Positions 2,224 through 46,103 of a stretch of 64,000 nt of DNA are shown here, one piece after another; the first letter of the stretch is position 1, and every line of letters begins with the position of its first letter. The notes under the pieces were generated by a model. It saw only the letters and a program-made list of their open reading frames with translations, ran no database searches and was not told the DNA's origin. The position numbers and the translations under genes were made by a program. The stretch is taken from the sequence record NC_041871.1. One strand, written 5' to 3'. The DNA comes from Escherichia phage Murica.

Positions 2224-5200
2224 TTACTTCAGTTTCTCTTGCAACCCAGTAACAACCTCTGTCAATTTTTTAACCTGCTCCTCAAGGGCGGTTATTTTAT
2301 CGTCCTGTTCCCTGCAAACCTGGACAAGCAAGCCTGTTACAGCTGCGTAGTCAACGTTATAGAACCTTTCTTCTGTTATCAAAGGAGTTCCATCTTGATC
2401 AGGATTTGGGATTTCCTTCCTTTTCACGAAAGACCCTACTGCCTCTGGCAATGCTTCCATGACCTCTTGAGCAATTACCCCCGCGTGAGGCATACCATTC
2501 TCTTTTAAAGTGTAGGTATAGCCCTTCATCTTACGGATAGCTTCCAGCGCGTTAGGAATAACCTCTATATTGTCCTTCAGGTCTCTATCAGAGCTCTGGC
2601 TCACAGTGGTGCACTCTACTACACCGTTGACAGCAAAATATCTTGACTTAGCCTCGTCTGACCTAGTGCCACAGTGGAATACCCAGCTAGCAGATGCAGC
2701 GTTGTCGTTTACCTGAAACTCAAGCACGTTCTTCCTGTCTGCGTTACCCCAATAGAACATTCTACCTGTATTGGTAGGTAAGTTATCGGCGTTGCTAGAA
2801 AGACTATTAGCACCGACATGAATTTCCAGTTGATTACTGGTTTCACCAAAAGTGTAATTAGGTCTTAACTGAATGCCTTTACCAGCATCGTGTCTCCATT
2901 CTTCCCAAGTAAAGACATCGCCAACGTAGTTACCAGCACGAGTATATCTGTCACCAAAATAGGTGATATATTCCTGCACACAACCTTGAGGTCTGTTAGC
3001 TGTGTTTTTGTAAACAAGCAGTGTACCAGCGTACGGAGCAGGGTAGTGGCGATCTATTACAAGTGCGTCAGCGTTTGAACCTTGGTGATAGAAACCTTCA
3101 CGGCTACCATCGTAGGCATTAAGGTCTTCTGTCCCCAGACCTTGACCACGGTGCTGAATAACTTTGTTCCACGCCCTGTGGTTACCACCCTCAATAGATC
3201 TGGTGTATAACTGATCAAGGCGACCAGCCATTTGGAAAGCATAGTTTCCAGAAAACGCCACAGACAGTCCACCAACAACCATCGAACCTTCCGGTCCGTT
3301 GACATTGCCAGCCATTATCTTGGAGGGGTTTGTATTACCAAACTGATTGTTCCAGTCAGCACCTGTCTGGCAAACATAGCCTCCAGGAGGGAAAAATGTG
3401 CCGTCTTTGTTGAAATTGTAGAACTTATGAGCTGTACCTACAACATCGCGAACGATAACTTGACCAGCTTCCGGAGTAGATCTGAACTCTGCCTGGCCTT
3501 GCAGTCTTGCACCATTACCACATTTAGAGGTAAAGGTGTTGTTGATCAGATCCTCTGTTCCTTCCGATGCAGCTTGGAACCCTGCGTTAGAGAACAGTGC
3601 TTTTCTAGTGGTCTGACTACCAGGACAAATGTAGTCAATACCGTCTGCCCAAAGCTCGACTTTAGGCATGTTCATTTTGCTCATCACTGCATAGCGTTCA
3701 GGAGTCCCCAGGTAGTGCCACATAGTTCCACCACCAGTGTAGAAACCTGATGTTCCTTTGAACTCAACCAGAGGTCTGGTGTTTGTTACATCATCACCTT
3801 TGATTGCAAGACTCAAATCTGCAGATTCCAGAGGAGCACAGAACTTGACACCATCTTGGTTACCTGTCACGTTGCCTACCTGCCAATCAGCCTCCCTGGT
3901 TGACACTTCTATTACAGTAGCGCCAGCATATACCGTAACAGGGAATGCACGTGCCTCTACATAGAATGCAACATACTCCTGCTTACCTCTGGTTGGAGAT
4001 ACACATCCGAGGATTGCTCTCTCGTTTTGGTAGAAATTAATAACCCCTTGGAAAGAATCACCTCTGTCTGTCCAGCCACCAGTTCTGTAGTGACACTGTA
4101 GTGTAGCACAGTTCATTGGGTCGCCGCCAGAAGAAGATCTGGTGACAATGGTTAAATCTGTCCCGATAGTTGCTGCAAAGTTGGGGTCAGTTCTGACGAT
4201 AATAGGATAATACTTACCGTCCTGCATAGCTGCAGTTCTAGGCAGGTTTACATATGGTCTAGCACCTGCTGCCAGAGGGATTCTGAATTGTGCTTGAGCA
4301 TCCCCTACAGTCCTGGCACTGGTACCACCACAAGCTATCGGTAGTGGTTCCCATTTGGCTTTCCGGTTGTTATAAACACCCCACTCAAGCGTTCCTTCAC
4401 CTTGCTCGTCCATACCGCCATCCCAAATGACCATCTTGGCGGCTTTCTTAGATCCCCAGAAACCTCTTTCTGCTCCTGAACTGCGGATCCATTCTCCAAG
4501 TCCCCAGTTTGTCAGCTGACCAGTAAGATCCCCAACCTGCATATATTTAGGGCAGTCTAATACGCCGTCTTCGCGGAAACCTAAATATTTATGAGTTTCA
4601 GATCCTTTTGCACCTTTGTGCAGGTGGATTGTCAGCCAAGCCTTATTGTCGTTTCTTACCTCAGAGTAGATCCTATATCCATGCTCAAGAACACCATCGG
4701 TGTTATATTTATCTCCATGGAGAATACCTGAGGCCGATTTAACATCTCCAGAGTATTGAGCTAAGTAAAGGTGCCCAAAGGCTGGCGAGTTGTTTTTACC
4801 AAGGCCAATATGAGATCTGAAGGTATCATCGTTACGAGGTCTGACCATCGGCTGCCATGCAGTCCACTGATTTGTGTTGGCCTGATAGGTTCTCAAATAC
4901 CAAACATCTACGTTAGAGAATGGATAGTATTCCTGACGACAACCTGTACCTCCGTTAGCATTGTTCTGCCAAACAATCAAGTGACCAGCACCAGAACCTG
5001 CAGGGTAACCATTTGCCTCGGTTGCATAAGCAGTCATCGGCTGGTAGTATACACCATCCTGATTACCAGTCAAGTTATTGATATTGAAATTTGACTCAAG
5101 AGCTGCACGTTGCTTATAGAAAGCCCCTAAGTTAATGCGTGCACCTGCGGCATCTCTGGCCCCCGTACCGCCTTGCTCTATAGCAAGAGGCTGCCACGAG

Positions 5201-6036
5201 GCTGTTTGTTGGTTCCACATGCCCCAACGGCCTGTTGCGTCAAGCTGCAAGTACCCTGCCGTGTTTAAATCATCTCCAGCACGGATAACTGTTCTTGTTG
5301 GGTTGTTTGCCTCCAGGCGTTTAAATTCATCACGAAGTGCTATTCTTTTTGTTGTTGCTACACCGTTGGTTACTGCGATGGTATACATGGCTCCGGATGT
5401 AGCGCCACGGAAAATACCATCAACAGTTGTAGTATCACGACGAGATACCACACCGTTCAGAAATTTTTCACCAGCTGCTACAGAAGGGTAGTTGGTGGTT
5501 CTTCCCTCTTCAATAACTGCAGGACCCACAAAGTTATCAAGGTGAATAACATCACCTACAGTGTGCACCGTACCAAAATCTACACGCTGTGCAAGTGCTT
5601 TAGCATCGTTAGCTGTCTGAACAGTAACATCCATTACATCCTGGACAGACTGCCCTTCGGCTGTCATGATCATAGATGCGCCAATGGTAGATTCCAGCTC
5701 CTCCCTTAGGGACGGGTCAGTATATACCATCCATGCAGCGTCAGTAATCCCACCATCGGAGTACGGTGAAGATAGTGCAGGAACAGTGTGTGGAAATTCG
5801 CCTTTCCAACGCAGGTAGAGATCTTCCTCTTCGAAATAGGCAAAATCCATTGGGCCGTTTAACTTACCACCTTCCTTAAAGGAGATTACATGAGAAACAG
5901 TCCCATCCACATGGACAACATCGCCAATTTTTACACGACGGGTCAGGTCTGGTTGTTGAACAACCAGGTAATCATCCTCTGTCACTGCGGTAGTGGCAGG
6001 AAGAGATTCAATTCTGACAACTTTAATATCAGCCAT
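2224..6036 (-). CDS. long tail fibre protein with C-terminal intramolecular chaperone (peptidase S74-like) domain
   Basis: 1270 aa; N-terminal motif shared with the 8671..9339 protein; C-terminus carries an SDRDLKDNIE...GYTY motif typical of autoproteolytic fibre chaperone domains, followed by a coiled coil. Confidence 0.75.
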   Translation of the reverse strand: MADIKVVRIESLPATTAVTEDDYLVVQQPDLTRRVKIGDVVHVDGTVSHVISFKEGGKLNGPMDFAYFEEEDLYLRWKGEFPHTVPALSSPYSDGGITDAAWMVYTDPSLREELESTIGASMIMTAEGQSVQDVMDVTVQTANDAKALAQRVDFGTVHTVGDVIHLDNFVGPAVIEEGRTTNYPSVAAGEKFLNGVVSRRDTTTVDGIFRGATSGAMYTIAVTNGVATTKRIALRDEFKRLEANNPTRTVIRAGDDLNTAGYLQLDATGRWGMWNQQTASWQPLAIEQGGTGARDAAGARINLGAFYKQRAALESNFNINNLTGNQDGVYYQPMTAYATEANGYPAGSGAGHLIVWQNNANGGTGCRQEYYPFSNVDVWYLRTYQANTNQWTAWQPMVRPRNDDTFRSHIGLGKNNSPAFGHLYLAQYSGDVKSASGILHGDKYNTDGVLEHGYRIYSEVRNDNKAWLTIHLHKGAKGSETHKYLGFREDGVLDCPKYMQVGDLTGQLTNWGLGEWIRSSGAERGFWGSKKAAKMVIWDGGMDEQGEGTLEWGVYNNRKAKWEPLPIACGGTSARTVGDAQAQFRIPLAAGARPYVNLPRTAAMQDGKYYPIIVRTDPNFAATIGTDLTIVTRSSSGGDPMNCATLQCHYRTGGWTDRGDSFQGVINFYQNERAILGCVSPTRGKQEYVAFYVEARAFPVTVYAGATVIEVSTREADWQVGNVTGNQDGVKFCAPLESADLSLAIKGDDVTNTRPLVEFKGTSGFYTGGGTMWHYLGTPERYAVMSKMNMPKVELWADGIDYICPGSQTTRKALFSNAGFQAASEGTEDLINNTFTSKCGNGARLQGQAEFRSTPEAGQVIVRDVVGTAHKFYNFNKDGTFFPPGGYVCQTGADWNNQFGNTNPSKIMAGNVNGPEGSMVVGGLSVAFSGNYAFQMAGRLDQLYTRSIEGGNHRAWNKVIQHRGQGLGTEDLNAYDGSREGFYHQGSNADALVIDRHYPAPYAGTLLVYKNTANRPQGCVQEYITYFGDRYTRAGNYVGDVFTWEEWRHDAGKGIQLRPNYTFGETSNQLEIHVGANSLSSNADNLPTNTGRMFYWGNADRKNVLEFQVNDNAASASWVFHCGTRSDEAKSRYFAVNGVVECTTVSQSSDRDLKDNIEVIPNALEAIRKMKGYTYTLKENGMPHAGVIAQEVMEALPEAVGSFVKRKEIPNPDQDGTPLITEERFYNVDYAAVTGLLVQVCREQDDKITALEEQVKKLTEVVTGLQEKLK

Positions 6037-39882: not shown

Positions 39883-40191
39883 ATGCTTAAAATTTTTATT
39901 GTTGAAGATAAAGATATCGTCCAGTTGTATGCAAACGAGAATCACAAAGGTATGATTCTGAAGAAGGCAAAAAACCTTCATGAAAACACAATTCAACCGG
40001 GTGATGTAATTAAGATCTGTGGTTATATGATACCAGACTCCTTGATGAAAATAACCCACCACTGGGGGTCTAATCCGTTCCTTTTTGAAAAGTATTGGGA
40101 TGTTGAGTCACTTATTGCAGAGAGTGATGATGCATTTCATTACAGCATCCAACCATCTTGCAGAATAACTAACAGGAGGGGCTTTGAGTAG
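39883..40191 (+). CDS. hypothetical protein
   Basis: 102-aa ORF with AGGAG RBS. Confidence 0.4.
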   Translation: MLKIFIVEDKDIVQLYANENHKGMILKKAKNLHENTIQPGDVIKICGYMIPDSLMKITHHWGSNPFLFEKYWDVESLIAESDDAFHYSIQPSCRITNRRGFE

Positions 40192-41323
40192 AGAATATCC
40201 ACTTATTGAATCTGTAGATTGTCTTGCTGATCTTCTCGAACCTGACGCTATAGTTTATTATGACTTCGACCAGGTTGCATATCAAGCTGCGGCAAGTTGT
40301 GAAAAAAGGACAATTGAGGTAACACACAAAGCCTCCGGACGTAAGAAGATGTTTAAAACACGAACAGAGTTCTGGGGTCGGCAGAAGAACACCGTTGGTG
40401 GTTGGTTAAAAGCTGAGAATACCAACCGTGAAGCCGCATGTAAAAAGTCTGGTAAGGAGTTTATTCCGTGGACACGTGAAGATTTTGATGTCTTGGATAT
40501 ACAAACACCTGACCCTGTAGAGAACTGCTTGCACACAATAAAATGTAAGGCAAATGCAGTTCTTAACTATCTTGGTATTCCGGAAGAGCGATGCGTCGGG
40601 GTGTTGGGAGGCACAGGTAACTTCAGACTAGATCTTCCAATGCCGGAAAGATACAAAGCCAACCGTAACAATACCCTTCGACCACTGCTGCTTGGAGATG
40701 CAAGACAGTATCTCCAAAAGCAGTATAATGCTCAAGTGATCAACGGTATCGAGGCTGACGACTGGTTAGCTATCCAGCAATTTGAAGGTTGGAACCACTA
40801 CCAAAAAACAGGTAAGTTCAACAAGTTTATTATCTCTATTGATAAGGACCAAAGAACACTACCGGGGCTTGTGTTCGATCCTATGCGAAACGATAAGGGA
40901 GATTTTGTAAGGGAAACCCCTATGCTGATCGATAACGGTATGGGGAACATCTTCATGAAGCCTAATGGAGAGGTTGGTGGTTACGGAATGCTGTTCTTCG
41001 GATACCAAATGCTGTGTGGTGACTCTGCTGACAATATCAAGCCGTATCAAGGACTTATCGGTAAAGGTAAGTTCGGGGATGCCTCAGCATTCTACCTGCT
41101 GTCTCAGTGCAGCACTCCAAAAGAGATGTGGGTGGCTATTATTGATCAGTACAAGAAGTGGTTCCCGAAAGGTGTTGTTAAGTATACTGACTTCAATGGT
41201 ATTGATCGTAGAATTTCCGTAGGTCAATGGATGAGTATAATTTTTGACTGTTTGTATATGAAGCGAACATTCAATGATCAAACAAAACTTGTTAACGTTC
41301 TTAGAAATGTTGGAGCAATTTGA
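40184..41323 (+). CDS. 5'-3' exonuclease / flap endonuclease (FEN/RNase H-like)
   Basis: GIEADDW acidic motif and H3TH motif CGDSADNIKPYQGLIG; TTG start after AGGAGGGG. Confidence 0.65.
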   Translation: MSREYPLIESVDCLADLLEPDAIVYYDFDQVAYQAAASCEKRTIEVTHKASGRKKMFKTRTEFWGRQKNTVGGWLKAENTNREAACKKSGKEFIPWTREDFDVLDIQTPDPVENCLHTIKCKANAVLNYLGIPEERCVGVLGGTGNFRLDLPMPERYKANRNNTLRPLLLGDARQYLQKQYNAQVINGIEADDWLAIQQFEGWNHYQKTGKFNKFIISIDKDQRTLPGLVFDPMRNDKGDFVRETPMLIDNGMGNIFMKPNGEVGGYGMLFFGYQMLCGDSADNIKPYQGLIGKGKFGDASAFYLLSQCSTPKEMWVAIIDQYKKWFPKGVVKYTDFNGIDRRISVGQWMSIIFDCLYMKRTFNDQTKLVNVLRNVGAI

Positions 41324-41646
41324 TGACTAAAAATTCTGTAGATAGTGCAATTATGGAAGCTGTTTTTGAGGATGATCATACAACAGGGACCATTAAAACA
41401 AAAAATACATTTATTGTTGCCACAGGTATGTGGCGGTTGTATGAAGATGACACTATTGCATACATCTTGTATACTGATGATTACGCAGATGATCGTGTAT
41501 GGTCTGCTGTGTTAAAAGAGGATTGTGAGCTGATTGAGGGCGAGCGGCTATGCATGTTTACCAGCGTGGAAACAGACGTTAAGCTTTGCTCTCTTGTGCT
41601 GTTCAAAGACAAAGCTTATTCCCCAGATGAAGAGGAAACAGTATGA
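41320..41646 (+). CDS. hypothetical protein
   Basis: 108-aa ORF coupled to neighbours. Confidence 0.4.
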   Translation: MMTKNSVDSAIMEAVFEDDHTTGTIKTKNTFIVATGMWRLYEDDTIAYILYTDDYADDRVWSAVLKEDCELIEGERLCMFTSVETDVKLCSLVLFKDKAYSPDEEETV

Positions 41647-42272
41647 GAGAAAGACTGCTGTCTATAGATCAGTCTCTTACCCACACAGCCTGCGTTGTAT
41701 GGGACGATGGAAAGCCTGTTCATAAGGTTGTGTTACGAACTCAAAGCTCATCTGCAAAAGAAAAGAAACCAGGGACGGTTTCTTTTGCAACAGCTGCTGA
41801 GCGTATTGACTGGATCTGCAAACAGGTCAGATATTATATCCACACGCACGGAGTTGACACCGTGGTTATGGAAGGGCTTTCCTTTGGATCACGCGGGGAT
41901 GCCACACGTGAACTGGCCGGGTTGTTTTACGGTCTTGAAATTATGCTTTGGGATGCCTTAGCTGATTGTGCAAATGACGGCCTGTTTAAGGTCCACACAG
42001 TGACACCAACAACTGCCAAAAAGTTTGCTCGTAGTCATCTTCCTGAAGAACTTGCTTTTGAGGAGAAGAAAAAGCTTGACAAAAAGACAGGTAAAGAGCA
42101 TACTGTGAAGAAACCTGTTACAATGGATAAAAAGTTGATGGTTAAGGCCTGCGAAGTATCTGAACCTGGGTTCCTAGACGGGATCAATTTGGTACAAGGT
42201 AAGGCCGATCTCGCAGATGCTTATTGGATAGGCAGGGCTCATCTGGAGGGATTATCGCAAAGCGTAAAATAA
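41643..42272 (+). CDS. putative RuvC-like Holliday junction resolvase
   Basis: N-terminal LSIDQSLTHTACVV resembles the RuvC catalytic start IDPGxxxTGxxV. Confidence 0.4.
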   Translation: MRERLLSIDQSLTHTACVVWDDGKPVHKVVLRTQSSSAKEKKPGTVSFATAAERIDWICKQVRYYIHTHGVDTVVMEGLSFGSRGDATRELAGLFYGLEIMLWDALADCANDGLFKVHTVTPTTAKKFARSHLPEELAFEEKKKLDKKTGKEHTVKKPVTMDKKLMVKACEVSEPGFLDGINLVQGKADLADAYWIGRAHLEGLSQSVK

Positions 42273-42829
42273 GAAAGAAAGCTGTCAAAGCCCCAGTTCA
42301 TAACGGGTGGTTAAAAGATTCTAAGGACATAGCCAACTTTCGAAAAGAATTGTCAGAGGAGCAGGATGGTCTTGATCCGATCTTGTGCGAGCCACTTCGT
42401 AAGCCTTGTTTAGATCATGATCATCTGACTGGTCGTTGCAGGGGTGTTTTGTCTCAATGCACTAATACCTTTGAGGGGTATGTGCTTAAATACTGGATGA
42501 AATACTGTAACGAGTATACAGATTGCAGTTTATCAGAGGCGTTGCGCCGGATGGCTGACTATTTGGAGAAAGACTACAGCGACTTCCCACTCCACAAAAA
42601 CTACAGAGATGATATGACAAAGTTCTTGAGGAGATGCTCTAAAGCTACGATTATTGCACGAGCAGAATCAGATCTCAATCTTGTCATTAATCCGGAGTGC
42701 ACCAAGCATGAGGCTATTGAGTTCTACATGCAGGAGTTTATAAAGAAAACTGAGGAGAGAGATTTCTATGGGGATGAAAAAGGTATTCAATCCTTGCGAC
42801 TCAGTCCTGATCAGGATGAAATACCGTAA
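42224..42829 (+). CDS. endonuclease VII-like junction-resolving enzyme (T4 gp49-like)
   Basis: CLDHDHLTGRCRGVLSQCTN matches the endo VII zinc/catalytic motif HLDHDH..G..RGLLC..CN; start codon uncertain (TTG at 42224). Confidence 0.65.
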   Translation: MDRQGSSGGIIAKRKIRKKAVKAPVHNGWLKDSKDIANFRKELSEEQDGLDPILCEPLRKPCLDHDHLTGRCRGVLSQCTNTFEGYVLKYWMKYCNEYTDCSLSEALRRMADYLEKDYSDFPLHKNYRDDMTKFLRRCSKATIIARAESDLNLVINPECTKHEAIEFYMQEFIKKTEERDFYGDEKGIQSLRLSPDQDEIP

Positions 42830-42989
42830 CTGGAAAGGTGTTGTTGCAGATCGCTGCGTTACTGAGCCTAATTTATGGTTTGGCTCTACAGAGTATCATA
42901 AAGAAGAGCAGTGGTTGATGCGTGCCTTCGATGTAGACAAGGGCGAATATCGTGACTTCGCTTTAAAAGACATTCTTCAGTTTTACTAA
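42768..42989 (+). CDS. hypothetical small protein
   Basis: 73-aa ORF. Confidence 0.35.
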   Translation: MGMKKVFNPCDSVLIRMKYRNWKGVVADRCVTEPNLWFGSTEYHKEEQWLMRAFDVDKGEYRDFALKDILQFY

Positions 42990-43001
42990 GGAATCTTAAC
43001 G

Positions 43002-43985
43002 ATGATGACAAAGTTAACTCTTGAGCAAATTTTAACACTAAAGCAACAGGGATACACTAATAGACAAATTGCTCGTGAATTTTTAGGCCGTGAGTCACGT
43101 GAGAGCTGGATCCGACTACAGCTTAAACGTGCACAAGATAATATGTCAGAGATTGTAGGAGAAGCAACGGAGCGCTTCCTTGAAGAGCACAAAGGTGCTA
43201 AAGTTTGGGTGTATGATACAGAGACATCCCCAACAAACGGCTGGTTCTTTGGGCACTATAAGACCAACATTCAAACCTGCGGTATTGAAGTTATGCCCTA
43301 TATGCTAACTTTCGCAGGTAAGTGGTTAGACAGCCCTAGTGTGGTTGACTGCGCTCTTCCAGATTACAAAATGTGGGATGAAGATATTCACAATGATCTC
43401 GAATTGATTCAGGATTTGTGGTATTATCTGGATAAATGCGATGTCGCAGTAGCCCACAATTCAGGTTTTGACTGCGGGTGGGCCAACCAACGATTTGCAT
43501 TTCACGGGTTGCCTCCAACAAGCCCTTACAAAGAGGTTGACACCCTTAAAATGATCAAGAAGGCATTCCGTTTGAATGCAAACACTTTGGAGTATGCATG
43601 CAAATACTTCCAACTGGCCCGACAGAAACTGATTGATCACACATTTGAAATGTGGATCAAGTGTGTCCATGGCGATCTTGAGGCATTTAAACAGATGCGA
43701 GAGTATAATGTTGGTGATATCCTGTCTCTGGAAGGACTGTATTTGCTGGCTCGCCCGTTTGCTAAGCAGCACCCAAACATGTCATTGTACTACCAAGACG
43801 AGGAGCCAAAGGTTCGTTGCCCACGCTGTGGTGGAGAACACTTTCACGAGGAAGAAGCTTTGGCATATACTCAGCTGAGTGCATTTAAAACATACCGCTG
43901 TGAAGGTTGTGGATCTGTTGTTCGTGACCGTAACAACATCCGTACCAGAGAAGAAATGAAAAACACCCTGATTCAGATAATCTAA
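43002..43985 (+). CDS. DEDD-family 3'-5' exonuclease with N-terminal HTH and C-terminal zinc ribbon
   Basis: Exo I VYDTET, Exo II HNSGFD; HTH-like YTNRQIAREF; CPRCGG...CEGCG. Confidence 0.55.
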   Translation: MMTKLTLEQILTLKQQGYTNRQIAREFLGRESRESWIRLQLKRAQDNMSEIVGEATERFLEEHKGAKVWVYDTETSPTNGWFFGHYKTNIQTCGIEVMPYMLTFAGKWLDSPSVVDCALPDYKMWDEDIHNDLELIQDLWYYLDKCDVAVAHNSGFDCGWANQRFAFHGLPPTSPYKEVDTLKMIKKAFRLNANTLEYACKYFQLARQKLIDHTFEMWIKCVHGDLEAFKQMREYNVGDILSLEGLYLLARPFAKQHPNMSLYYQDEEPKVRCPRCGGEHFHEEEALAYTQLSAFKTYRCEGCGSVVRDRNNIRTREEMKNTLIQII

Positions 43986-43993
43986 CAATTATA

Positions 43994-44021
43994 GGGAGGC
44001 TTGCGCCTCCCTTTTCCTTTT
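43994..44021 (+). terminator. rho-independent terminator
   Basis: GGGAGGC-TTGC-GCCTCCC hairpin followed by TTTTCCTTTT. Confidence 0.65.
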
Positions 44022-45285: not shown

Positions 45286-45489
45286 TTGGAGACTACAATG
45301 ACACTAAAGTTAACAATTCCAGACAGCTTTTCAGAAAACTTTATCCCAGAAATGATGGGTAAGATGCGATCATTGCTTGATCAGATTGAGGAAGCTGTTT
45401 GGGAAGACGATGCTGTAGTGGCTAACGAGCTAGTAGATAAGTGTAAAAGTATTATTGATGCAGTTGAAGAATACCACGGAGGTTTTTGA
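45286..45489 (+). CDS. hypothetical small acidic protein
   Basis: 67-aa ORF. Confidence 0.35.
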   Translation: METTMTLKLTIPDSFSENFIPEMMGKMRSLLDQIEEAVWEDDAVVANELVDKCKSIIDAVEEYHGGF

Positions 45490-46103
45490 TGGATATTATT
45501 GTTCTTAACGCCCCACCCAGCAGTGGTAAGGATCACATTGCAGATCTCTTGTTGGAAGCTATTCCTAACTCACACCACCGTGAGGTTAAGGAGATGCTCT
45601 TCAGTGTGGCAATTAAGGCAGCTGGTGTAACTCCTCAACTCTGGAATGCACTTTATGACCGCCACTACAAAGAAGATCCTTGCCCTTTCTTAATGATAGA
45701 CGGCAAGCATGTTTCTCCGCGAGAGTGGATGATCCATTGTAGTGAAAATCTGATTAAACCTATCTTTGGTGAAGATGCTTTCGGTAAGGCCGCAGTCACA
45801 TCCTTGAAGAAAGATTTCCCTAAAGGTAAAGGGGTTGTTGTTTACTCCGATGGTGGATTCAAAGAGGAGCTGGCATGCCTTAGTGAGTACGCATACAGCA
45901 CAGGTGGAGATCTGTTGTTGTTCCGTATTCACCGTGTAGGATATGACTGGGGAAATGATTCCAGAACCTATCTAAGTCTGGAAAAGAACGGAATAAAAGG
46001 GGTTGAGTTTGATGTTGTAAACCCTGAAGGTGCACCTTGGGAGTGTGCATCGGAGATTGTGTGCAAGTATATTGATGCTAAAGAGGCCCAAGAAGAATGT
46101 TAA
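45486..46103 (+). CDS. putative deoxynucleoside monophosphate kinase
   Basis: N-terminal IVLNAPPSSGKDHIAD resembles the T4 gp1 P-loop LSGVKRSGKDTTAD. Confidence 0.5.
   Translation: MMDIIVLNAPPSSGKDHIADLLLEAIPNSHHREVKEMLFSVAIKAAGVTPQLWNALYDRHYKEDPCPFLMIDGKHVSPREWMIHCSENLIKPIFGEDAFGKAAVTSLKKDFPKGKGVVVYSDGGFKEELACLSEYAYSTGGDLLLFRIHRVGYDWGNDSRTYLSLEKNGIKGVEFDVVNPEGAPWECASEIVCKYIDAKEAQEEC

Follow-up and report, generated by a model that had tools for sequence, protein, structure and literature searches.

A gene at positions 43002–43985 (+ strand) of a 64,000-nucleotide stretch of Escherichia phage Murica DNA (NC_041871.1; the window) encodes a predicted DEDDy-type 3'-5' exonuclease, the catalytic core of which is preceded by a helix-turn-helix (HTH) domain and followed by a zinc ribbon. 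The reading that we favor, with a probability of about 0.55, is that the protein is a DNA-anchored exonuclease working within the nuclease set of the phage, where it would trim 3' ends, rather than an obligatory subunit for proofreading by the phage DNA polymerase.

The exonuclease belongs to a very large phage family

The open reading frame (ORF) is complete. It begins with an ATG, continues for 327 codons to a stop, and encodes, in order, the HTH, a linker, the DEDDy exonuclease and the zinc ribbon. A ribosome-binding site, AAGGAA, can be read from the sequence 8 nucleotides 5' of the ATG (42988–42993, +). The product has 100% amino acid identity to that of phage vB_EcoM-Pr121LW, and an identical (100%) product is present in record MH752840. 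The window, which is from an rV5-like Vequintavirus of E. coli, and vB_EcoM-Pr121LW are 99.8% identical across 4 kb. At an amino acid identity of at least 95% the exonuclease occurs in 119 phage records, and a tblastn search found matches to it in 1,526 phage records. It matches the profile phrog_403 from end to end (residues 2–326 to profile positions 2–320 of 321, E 8.9e-110), and an exhaustive HMMER search identified 3,448 clusters, defined at 50% identity, that are homologous to it at E ≤ 1e-3. Residue conservation and the presence of N-terminal extensions were counted in representatives of the best 150 of these 3,448 clusters.

The identical product in databases, the match to phrog_403, the number of homologous clusters and the invariance of key residues place the features of the ORF beyond chance. 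Judged by these comparisons, the exonuclease of the window is a member of the phage-wide, very large and catalogued family phrog_403. The locus is thus an ordinary member of a known family, and its novelty is low. The interest lies at the level of the family, in which an invariant ribbon is combined with an N-terminal slot for exchangeable DNA-binding modules, and which carries probably misleading "polymerase subunit" and "DnaQ" labels, both based on homology. Few nuclease families are as common in tailed phages as phrog_403, for which there are about 3,400 clusters (50% identity) and more than 1,500 GenBank phage records, and its carriers include candidates for therapy from the rV5, phiKMV and ICP1 groups.

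The catalytic core is of the DEDDy type

The exonuclease core comprises residues 67–255 (43200–43766, +), resembles the exonuclease domains of family-B polymerases and has an RNase H-like α/β fold. It contains the three motifs that characterize the DEDD superfamily, which are DxE in Exo I, Nx2-3(F/Y)D in Exo II, and (Y/H)x3-4D in Exo III. The Exo I motif is D72-T-E74 (YDTETS; 43215–43223, +), and every one of the 144 representatives (of 150) that are not truncated has both its Asp and its Glu. In the Exo II motif N153-SGF-D157 (HNSGFD; 43458–43472, +), the Asn is kept in 140 and the Asp in 148 of the 150. The Exo III motif Y235-NVG-D239 (EYNVGD; 43704–43718, +) has the Y-x3-D spacing of the DEDDy type, and both its Tyr and its Asp occur in 150/150 representatives. 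A sequence-only reading of the window had quoted DTET, HNSGFD and CxxC...CxxC from this ORF; all are present as quoted and are conserved across the family. It did not mention EYNVGD, which completes the DEDD active site and assigns it to the DEDDy subtype.

A few truncated entries aside, D72, E74, D157, Y235, D239 and the four cysteines of the ribbon are invariant or kept in 149–150 of the 150 representatives. Therefore, as far as sequence conservation can tell, the exonuclease core and the zinc ribbon are hallmarks of phrog_403 and define a family under constraint.

In its fold, the core is closest to polymerase proofreading domains, and the exonuclease domains of PolB enzymes are a better structural match than DnaQ. 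A conventional DnaQ orthologue was considered and rejected, as DnaQ requires H-x4-D in Exo III, whereas the family has Y-x3-D. The NCBIfam equivalog models of DnaQ gave 26.8 bits against a cut-off of 196 (NF004316) and 23 bits against a cut-off of 222.7 (TIGR01406). Because these scores are about one tenth of the cut-offs, the protein is no conventional DnaQ. The sequence and fold comparisons identify the core as a PolB-exonuclease-like DEDDy enzyme and not a DnaQ-like one.

The RNase_T model scored 21.8 bits on the window exonuclease (cut-off 24), and neither PF13482 (RNase_H_2) nor PF10108 (DNA_pol_B_exo2) matched it even at E ≤ 10. At E ≤ 0.01, PF13482 matched 113 of 118 homologues, PF10108 matched 67, and PF03104 matched 31. 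Membership of the window exonuclease in PF13482 and PF10108 would thus be through transitive homology only. The counterpart of phrog_403 in the classification of Majorek et al. 2014 is cluster F.23, "PF13482 from phages", which is uncharacterised (PMC3985635).

The core is flanked by a helix-turn-helix domain and a zinc ribbon

Residues 6–47 (43017–43142, +) form a three-helix HTH, in which helix 2 is TNRQIAREF and the recognition helix is ESWIRLQLKRAQ. The region of the recognition helix is basic, with a net charge of +4 across residues 20–45. AlphaFold2 (AF2) models of the full-length protein and of the isolated 66-residue N-terminus both contain helices 7–15, 20–28 and 34–47 with a predicted local distance difference test score (pLDDT) of 78–93, and the three-helix core has helix-turn-helix geometry. 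The best matches of the isolated model were LuxR-type and sigma region-4 domains. When the N-terminal ~60 residues alone were compared with Pfam, the matches were weak (HTH_38, 17.4 bits, cut-off 27; HTH_7, 16.5 bits, cut-off 23.8). A profile was therefore built from 30 homologous N-termini, with the consensus L...G.S.R.IA...G...STV...L. Against solved domains this profile matched NarL (E 6e-5) and the PAI domain of Sleeping Beauty (E 2e-4), as well as the resolvases Tn3 (E 9e-4) and gamma-delta (E 5.5e-3). The N-terminus belongs to the HTH class, within which no single family can be named. The HTH is followed by an acidic linker helix, residues 48–66 (43143–43199, +), which is weakly predicted (AF2 helix 53–62, pLDDT 47–72) and poorly conserved among homologues.

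The Cys4 zinc ribbon comprises residues 270–313 (43809–43940, +), with the knuckles C273-PR-C276 and C300-EG-C303 and three predicted β strands. The AF2 model places these strands at residues 281–289, 293–300 and 306–312, followed by a terminal helix, which is the topology of a zinc ribbon. The C-terminus also has weak matches to at least eight zinc-ribbon Pfam families, consistent with a ribbon. The two CxxC knuckles around a three-stranded sheet are, according to the model, a zinc ribbon, and zinc binding is predicted.

Domain prediction with hidden Markov models and structure modelling thus recover the HTH, the exonuclease core and the ribbon. The sequence-only reading had likened the N-terminal ~60 residues to a sigma-70 region-4 or LuxR-type HTH, and the AF2 model and the family profile agree with it. 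The opposite outcome, in which the N-terminus is not an HTH and the protein is a conventional DnaQ-like exonuclease, fails on both counts, as the HTH is borne out and the core is DEDDy and PolB-like.

The N-terminal slot of the family holds exchangeable DNA-binding modules

At least 40 residues precede the core in 117 of the 150 representatives (~78%), and fewer than 20 do so in about 28, some of which are fragments. The profile of the window-type HTH matched 49 of the 117 extended members, all at E < 1e-3, and 19 of these 49 were outside the set from which the profile was built. Pfam comparison of the remaining 68 N-termini identified NUMOD1 in three (best E 5e-6), a NUMOD-like module of I-HmuI, a Myb domain (E 1e-8), a Fis-type HTH_8, members of HTH_23, HTH_28, HTH_7 and HTH_3, and several transposase- and TFIIS-type zinc ribbons. 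Every recognizable module in this position is of a small nucleic-acid-binding type. In sequence terms, the N-terminal extension is an exchangeable slot of phrog_403 that is occupied by predicted DNA-binding modules or by nothing.

Module and body appear to recombine independently, because the exonuclease bodies of two homologues (P0006 and P0007) are 72% identical and their ribbons 70%, compared with only 20% for the HTH. Since unrelated DNA-binding folds were acquired independently at one position, selection would have acted on DNA binding rather than on a particular protein contact. The variety of the modules provides the strongest in silico support for a DNA-anchoring role, and it is silent on sequence specificity.

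The same comparison bears on a different explanation of the HTH, namely that it mediates contacts between proteins or (auto)regulates transcription and that the exonuclease is untargeted. We consider this improbable, since elsewhere in the family the slot is filled by unrelated folds (NUMOD1, Myb, zinc ribbons, Fis-type HTH) that share nothing but nucleic-acid binding, and the recognition-helix region of the window protein is basic.

The sequence-only reading regarded the domain arrangement as unusual and proposed a DNA-targeted nuclease with sequence- or structure-specific recruitment. The arrangement does differ from those of DnaQ and DexA, and it is the standard layout of phrog_403 and of the phage PF13482 cluster. 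Recruitment to DNA is plausible, given the varied DNA-binding modules of the slot, whereas sequence- or structure-specific targeting is conjectural. We speculate, as a distinctly tentative extension by analogy with the targeting of homing endonucleases, that phrog_403 enzymes could be "addressed" 3'-5' exonucleases, in which a constant body of DEDDy core and ribbon is combined with an exchangeable reader (HTH, Myb, NUMOD1 or zinc ribbon). If so, the HTH of the rV5-like phages would direct the enzyme to sites on phage or host DNA, and its role would be apart from proofreading. Candidate targets would be the ends of the genome, intermediates of replication or recombination, or an element of the host or of a rival.

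Proposed mode of action

Based on the predicted domains and the neighboring genes, a mode of action for the DNA-anchored exonuclease can be proposed. The core would use two-metal-ion catalysis to take nucleotides off the 3' ends of DNA. The enzyme would be held on its DNA substrate by the basic HTH and, probably, by the ribbon as well, and this tethering may increase the local concentration of the enzyme or position the 3' end. A 5'-3' flap endonuclease (FEN)-like exonuclease, a RuvC-like resolvase and endonuclease VII (EndoVII) would be its partners in a DNA-processing nuclease set, and the likely task of the enzyme would be to trim replication and recombination intermediates at their 3' ends or flaps.

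Several points weigh against this reading. DNA binding by the HTH and the ribbon is deduced from fold and family only, and HTH domains resembling sigma region 4 may also serve as protein-interaction surfaces. In a single-sequence Pfam scan the exonuclease had no match above a gathering threshold, which is why family-level profiles were used. The model of the ribbon has low confidence (pLDDT 51–71). In a large, mostly marine clade that the profile search retrieved, Ser replaces the second Cys of both knuckles, and therefore the metal site is not universal in the family. The synteny with FEN and EndoVII genes described below is absent from the ICP1-like, Saclayvirus and mycobacteriophage contexts. 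In the literature, no biochemical or genetic datum on phrog_403 members was found other than the overexpression of gp37 of mycobacteriophage Girr, which was moderately toxic in M. smegmatis (PMC11075535). The publications on rV5, phiKMV/LUZ19, PF13482/PF10108 and DnaQ-like mycobacteriophage proteins contained annotation-level statements and this one toxicity result.

The marine-clade proteins (P0010–P0121, mostly from metagenomes) have knuckles of the form CPxSG and CExS, with the surrounding sequence kept, and their ribbon is, from its sequence, probably a zinc-free version. Their N-termini have a different HTH signature, V..RTIR..A.ELGL.

Allele exchange in rV5 relatives

The converse of the pair described above is provided by the homologues P0002 and P0004, in which the HTH is 98% identical, the body 51% and the ribbon 41%. 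Upstream of the gene the contigs of the two have ~93% identity, and their nucleotide identity is 95.5% as far as codon ~77, which is located just past Exo I. Beyond this codon the gene cannot be aligned, and directly after the stop codon the contigs are 100% identical. We explain this pattern by recombination at the conserved Exo I coding stretch, by which one allele replaced another. The near-identity of the HTH domains of P0002, P0003 and P0004 was also considered as a sign of selection on the HTH, and this was rejected, as the shared segment lies within a longer block of ~93–95% identity. Because the shared block ends just past the Exo I coding stretch, the sharing represents ordinary recombinational mosaicism.

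In the metagenomic rV5 relatives L019 (5898–7156) and L020 (5898–7089), the catalytic body is replaced between flanks that are ~93–100% identical. The contig of P0002 (L020) contains, directly upstream of the exonuclease gene, a 336-residue HNH_3/AP2 homing-endonuclease-like ORF (4980–5990) in place of the small ORF that is seen in L019 and in the window. The HNH_3/AP2 ORF may have promoted the exchange of exonuclease alleles.

Replacement of the body by a ~50%-identical allele between genomes that are otherwise 93–100% identical is a pattern often seen under diversifying pressure. It could indicate a role in counter-defence or competition, in which the enzyme removes chain-terminating or damaged 3' nucleotides or destroys DNA species of the host or of a rival. 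The Girr gene, the overexpression of which is toxic, is located in an accessory region between the lysis genes and the integrase, in keeping with such a role. However, the allele swap is explained equally well by ordinary recombination at the Exo I stretch or by the adjacent homing-endonuclease-like gene, and PADLOC gave only a weak generic DEDDh match (25.7 bits), which lends no support to a relation with defence systems. We therefore regard a counter-defence role as very unlikely.

Relation to the phage DNA polymerase

Databases label members of phrog_403 as "DNA polymerase exonuclease subunit", "DnaQ-like exonuclease" or "YprB RNase H-like protein". The first of these labels, which is widespread in annotation, implies that the enzyme is a trans-acting proofreader that docks on the family-A polymerase or the replisome and edits 3' mismatches, with the HTH and the ribbon as docking or primer-template-binding elements. 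The fold of the core, closest to that of polymerase proofreading domains, speaks for this function.

The family-A polymerase of this phage type is rV5 gp228 (PMC3606486). N-termini of rV5/ICP1-type PolA proteins were gathered by tblastn on phage records and from loci, and seven sequences were sampled. Their profile aligns to residues 2–248 of T7 DNA polymerase (E 5e-15), and the carboxylates D7, E9, D102 and D205 are invariant at the positions of T7 Exo I–III. The T7-like alignment and the four invariant carboxylates indicate that the phage PolA has an exonuclease domain of its own. Where T7 polymerase has its Exo III tyrosine, 7/7 of these polymerases have an invariant Arg (R201) (L004:12631–15057 (-) and L012–L017). 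Because of this replacement, editing by the polymerase itself could be atypical, which leaves room for proofreading in trans.

Against proofreading stands, in addition to the retained carboxylates, the position of the exonuclease gene, which lies among nuclease genes at a distance of ~50 kb from that of the polymerase. Mycobacteriophage Girr has a family member (gp37), and the inspected part of its record (25.4–57.7 kb, genes 26–103), which excludes the left arm of ~25 kb, contains no annotated DNA polymerase. The label itself rests on homology, and no supporting experiment was found in the literature. A proofreader acting in trans is therefore unlikely, in our judgment. The label "polymerase exonuclease subunit" is, on sequence grounds, unproven for phrog_403. 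Since the core is of the PolB-type DEDDy class, the ribbon is invariant and joined to a swappable module, and the polymerase has its own exonuclease domain, the annotation of the family as "polymerase subunit" or "DnaQ" is probably misleading.

In phage navn (L004:12004–15788), the annotated 809-residue polymerase coding sequence ends with "...RRIIYYHK", short of the stretch that corresponds to polymerase motif C in the alignment with LKD16 and Xop411, and directly at its 5' end lies an HNH endonuclease gene. Navn may thus have a polymerase gene that is split or interrupted.

Genomic context

Three nuclease genes precede the exonuclease gene on the same strand. They encode a 5'-3' exonuclease of the FEN/RNase H-like type (40184–41323, +; phrog_107, E 2.4e-71; exonuclease or RNaseH in the annotation of relatives), a RuvC-like Holliday junction resolvase (41643–42272, +; phrog_159, E 5.5e-39) and endonuclease VII (42224–42829, +; phrog_423, E 6.4e-37). 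A small ORF of 73 codons (42768–42989, +) lies between the EndoVII and exonuclease genes. It matches only positions 121–189 of the 251-position profile phrog_3715, which is of unknown function, and may, given this partial match, be what is left of a longer gene.

The order 5'-3' exonuclease, EndoVII, (small ORF), phrog_403 gene is found in rV5-like myoviruses, in the phiKMV-like phage LKD16 (gp22-gp23-gp24) and in the Xp10-like phage Xop411 (gp37-gp36-gp35). Phage JG068 has the order 5'-3' exonuclease, EndoVII, small ORF, phrog_403 member in gp21-gp22-gp23-gp24 (PMC3765740). The synteny thus recurs in three virion types that share a T7-like replication module. The small ORF of JG068, gp23, at the matching position, has 60 residues.

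The genes 3' of the exonuclease gene encode a methyltransferase-like protein, a deoxynucleoside monophosphate (dNMP) kinase, ThyA and Nrd proteins. The dNMP kinase gene (45486–46103, +; E 4.5e-44, supported by the annotation of relatives) opens the nucleotide-metabolism block that continues downstream with ThyA and Nrd genes. The exonuclease gene is thus located at the junction of the nuclease cluster and the nucleotide-metabolism cluster, and its closeness to thymidine kinase, ThyA and ribonucleotide reductase genes is comparable in a phi92-like phage and in Saclayvirus. This position would suit a function in nucleotide salvage like that of T4 DexA, in which fragments of host DNA produced by the neighboring endonucleases are degraded to dNMPs for the block of dNMP kinase, ThyA and ribonucleotide reductase. 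T4 DexA, which is also a stand-alone 3'-5' DEDD exonuclease of a phage, may be a functional analogue in this respect. However, the family is also present in podoviruses and temperate mycobacteriophages that lack nucleotide-metabolism blocks, and bulk degradation has no obvious need for a sequence-reading HTH. We consider it doubtful that salvage is the function of the enzyme.

A consensus scan and the sequence itself identify a terminator-like element at 43993–44021 (+), composed of an 8-bp GC-rich hairpin, AGGGAGGC-TTGC-GCCTCCCT, and the T-rich run TTTTCCTTTT. It starts 8 nucleotides past the stop codon of the exonuclease gene and is terminator-like on both strands, and its role as a terminator is putative. 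The hairpin overlaps the approach to the GGAGG ribosome-binding site and the TTG start (44031) of the methyltransferase-like gene.

Phage LL12 (L002) provides a counterpart of the left half of the window, where it has a cluster of seven tRNAs and two Sir2-like genes. The gene for the terminase large subunit in this region is annotated as intron-containing.

Comparison with known systems

The members of phrog_403 include LKD16 gp24, LKA1 Q0E5Y0, Xop411 gp35, JG068 gp24 and mycobacteriophage Girr gp37. The protein of the window is homologous to the family over its full length, shares the DEDDy residues and the Cys4 ribbon, and differs from it in nothing essential. The LKA1 protein is a full-length structural match, and the gene neighborhoods of the members in LKD16, Xop411 and JG068 are as in the window. 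Xop411 gp35 (245 residues) and JG068 gp24 (264 residues) have no N-terminal HTH.

In contrast to family-B polymerases, the exonuclease domain (PF03104) of which its core resembles, the window protein has no polymerase domain, and its HTH and Cys4 ribbon are extra relative to PF03104 and to the stand-alone PolB-exonuclease-like proteins (PF10108, PF13482/YprB). E. coli DnaQ, the epsilon subunit of polymerase III, is a DEDDh enzyme (H-x4-D) in which both an HTH and a zinc ribbon are absent, whereas the window protein is DEDDy and lacks the C-terminal tail by which DnaQ binds the alpha subunit. T4 DexA, also of the DEDDh type, consists of a single domain and lacks both HTH and ribbon, and no DexA-like match to the window exonuclease was found in the Pfam, phrog and other homology searches made.

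LuxR/NarL (GerE-type) proteins, sigma-70 region 4 and the HTH_7, HTH_23 and HTH_38 domains of resolvases and transposases are the closest comparisons for the N-terminus. The window HTH differs from them in being fused to a nuclease instead of a receiver, a recombinase or a sigma core. It consists of three helices and the linker helix, and has a 3-residue insertion in the turn that is common to a subset of the family.

The combination of a DEDDy exonuclease with accessory nucleic-acid-binding domains has a parallel, by analogy of design principle, in RNase D and in WRN, with their HRDC domains. Modular homing endonucleases such as I-TevI and I-HmuI, with their NUMOD, HTH and zinc-finger modules, may be compared in a similar way, as they too appear to be built from a nuclease body, a linker and exchangeable DNA-binding modules. 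The homing endonucleases differ in their endonuclease catalysis, whereas the protein of the window is a predicted 3'-5' exonuclease.

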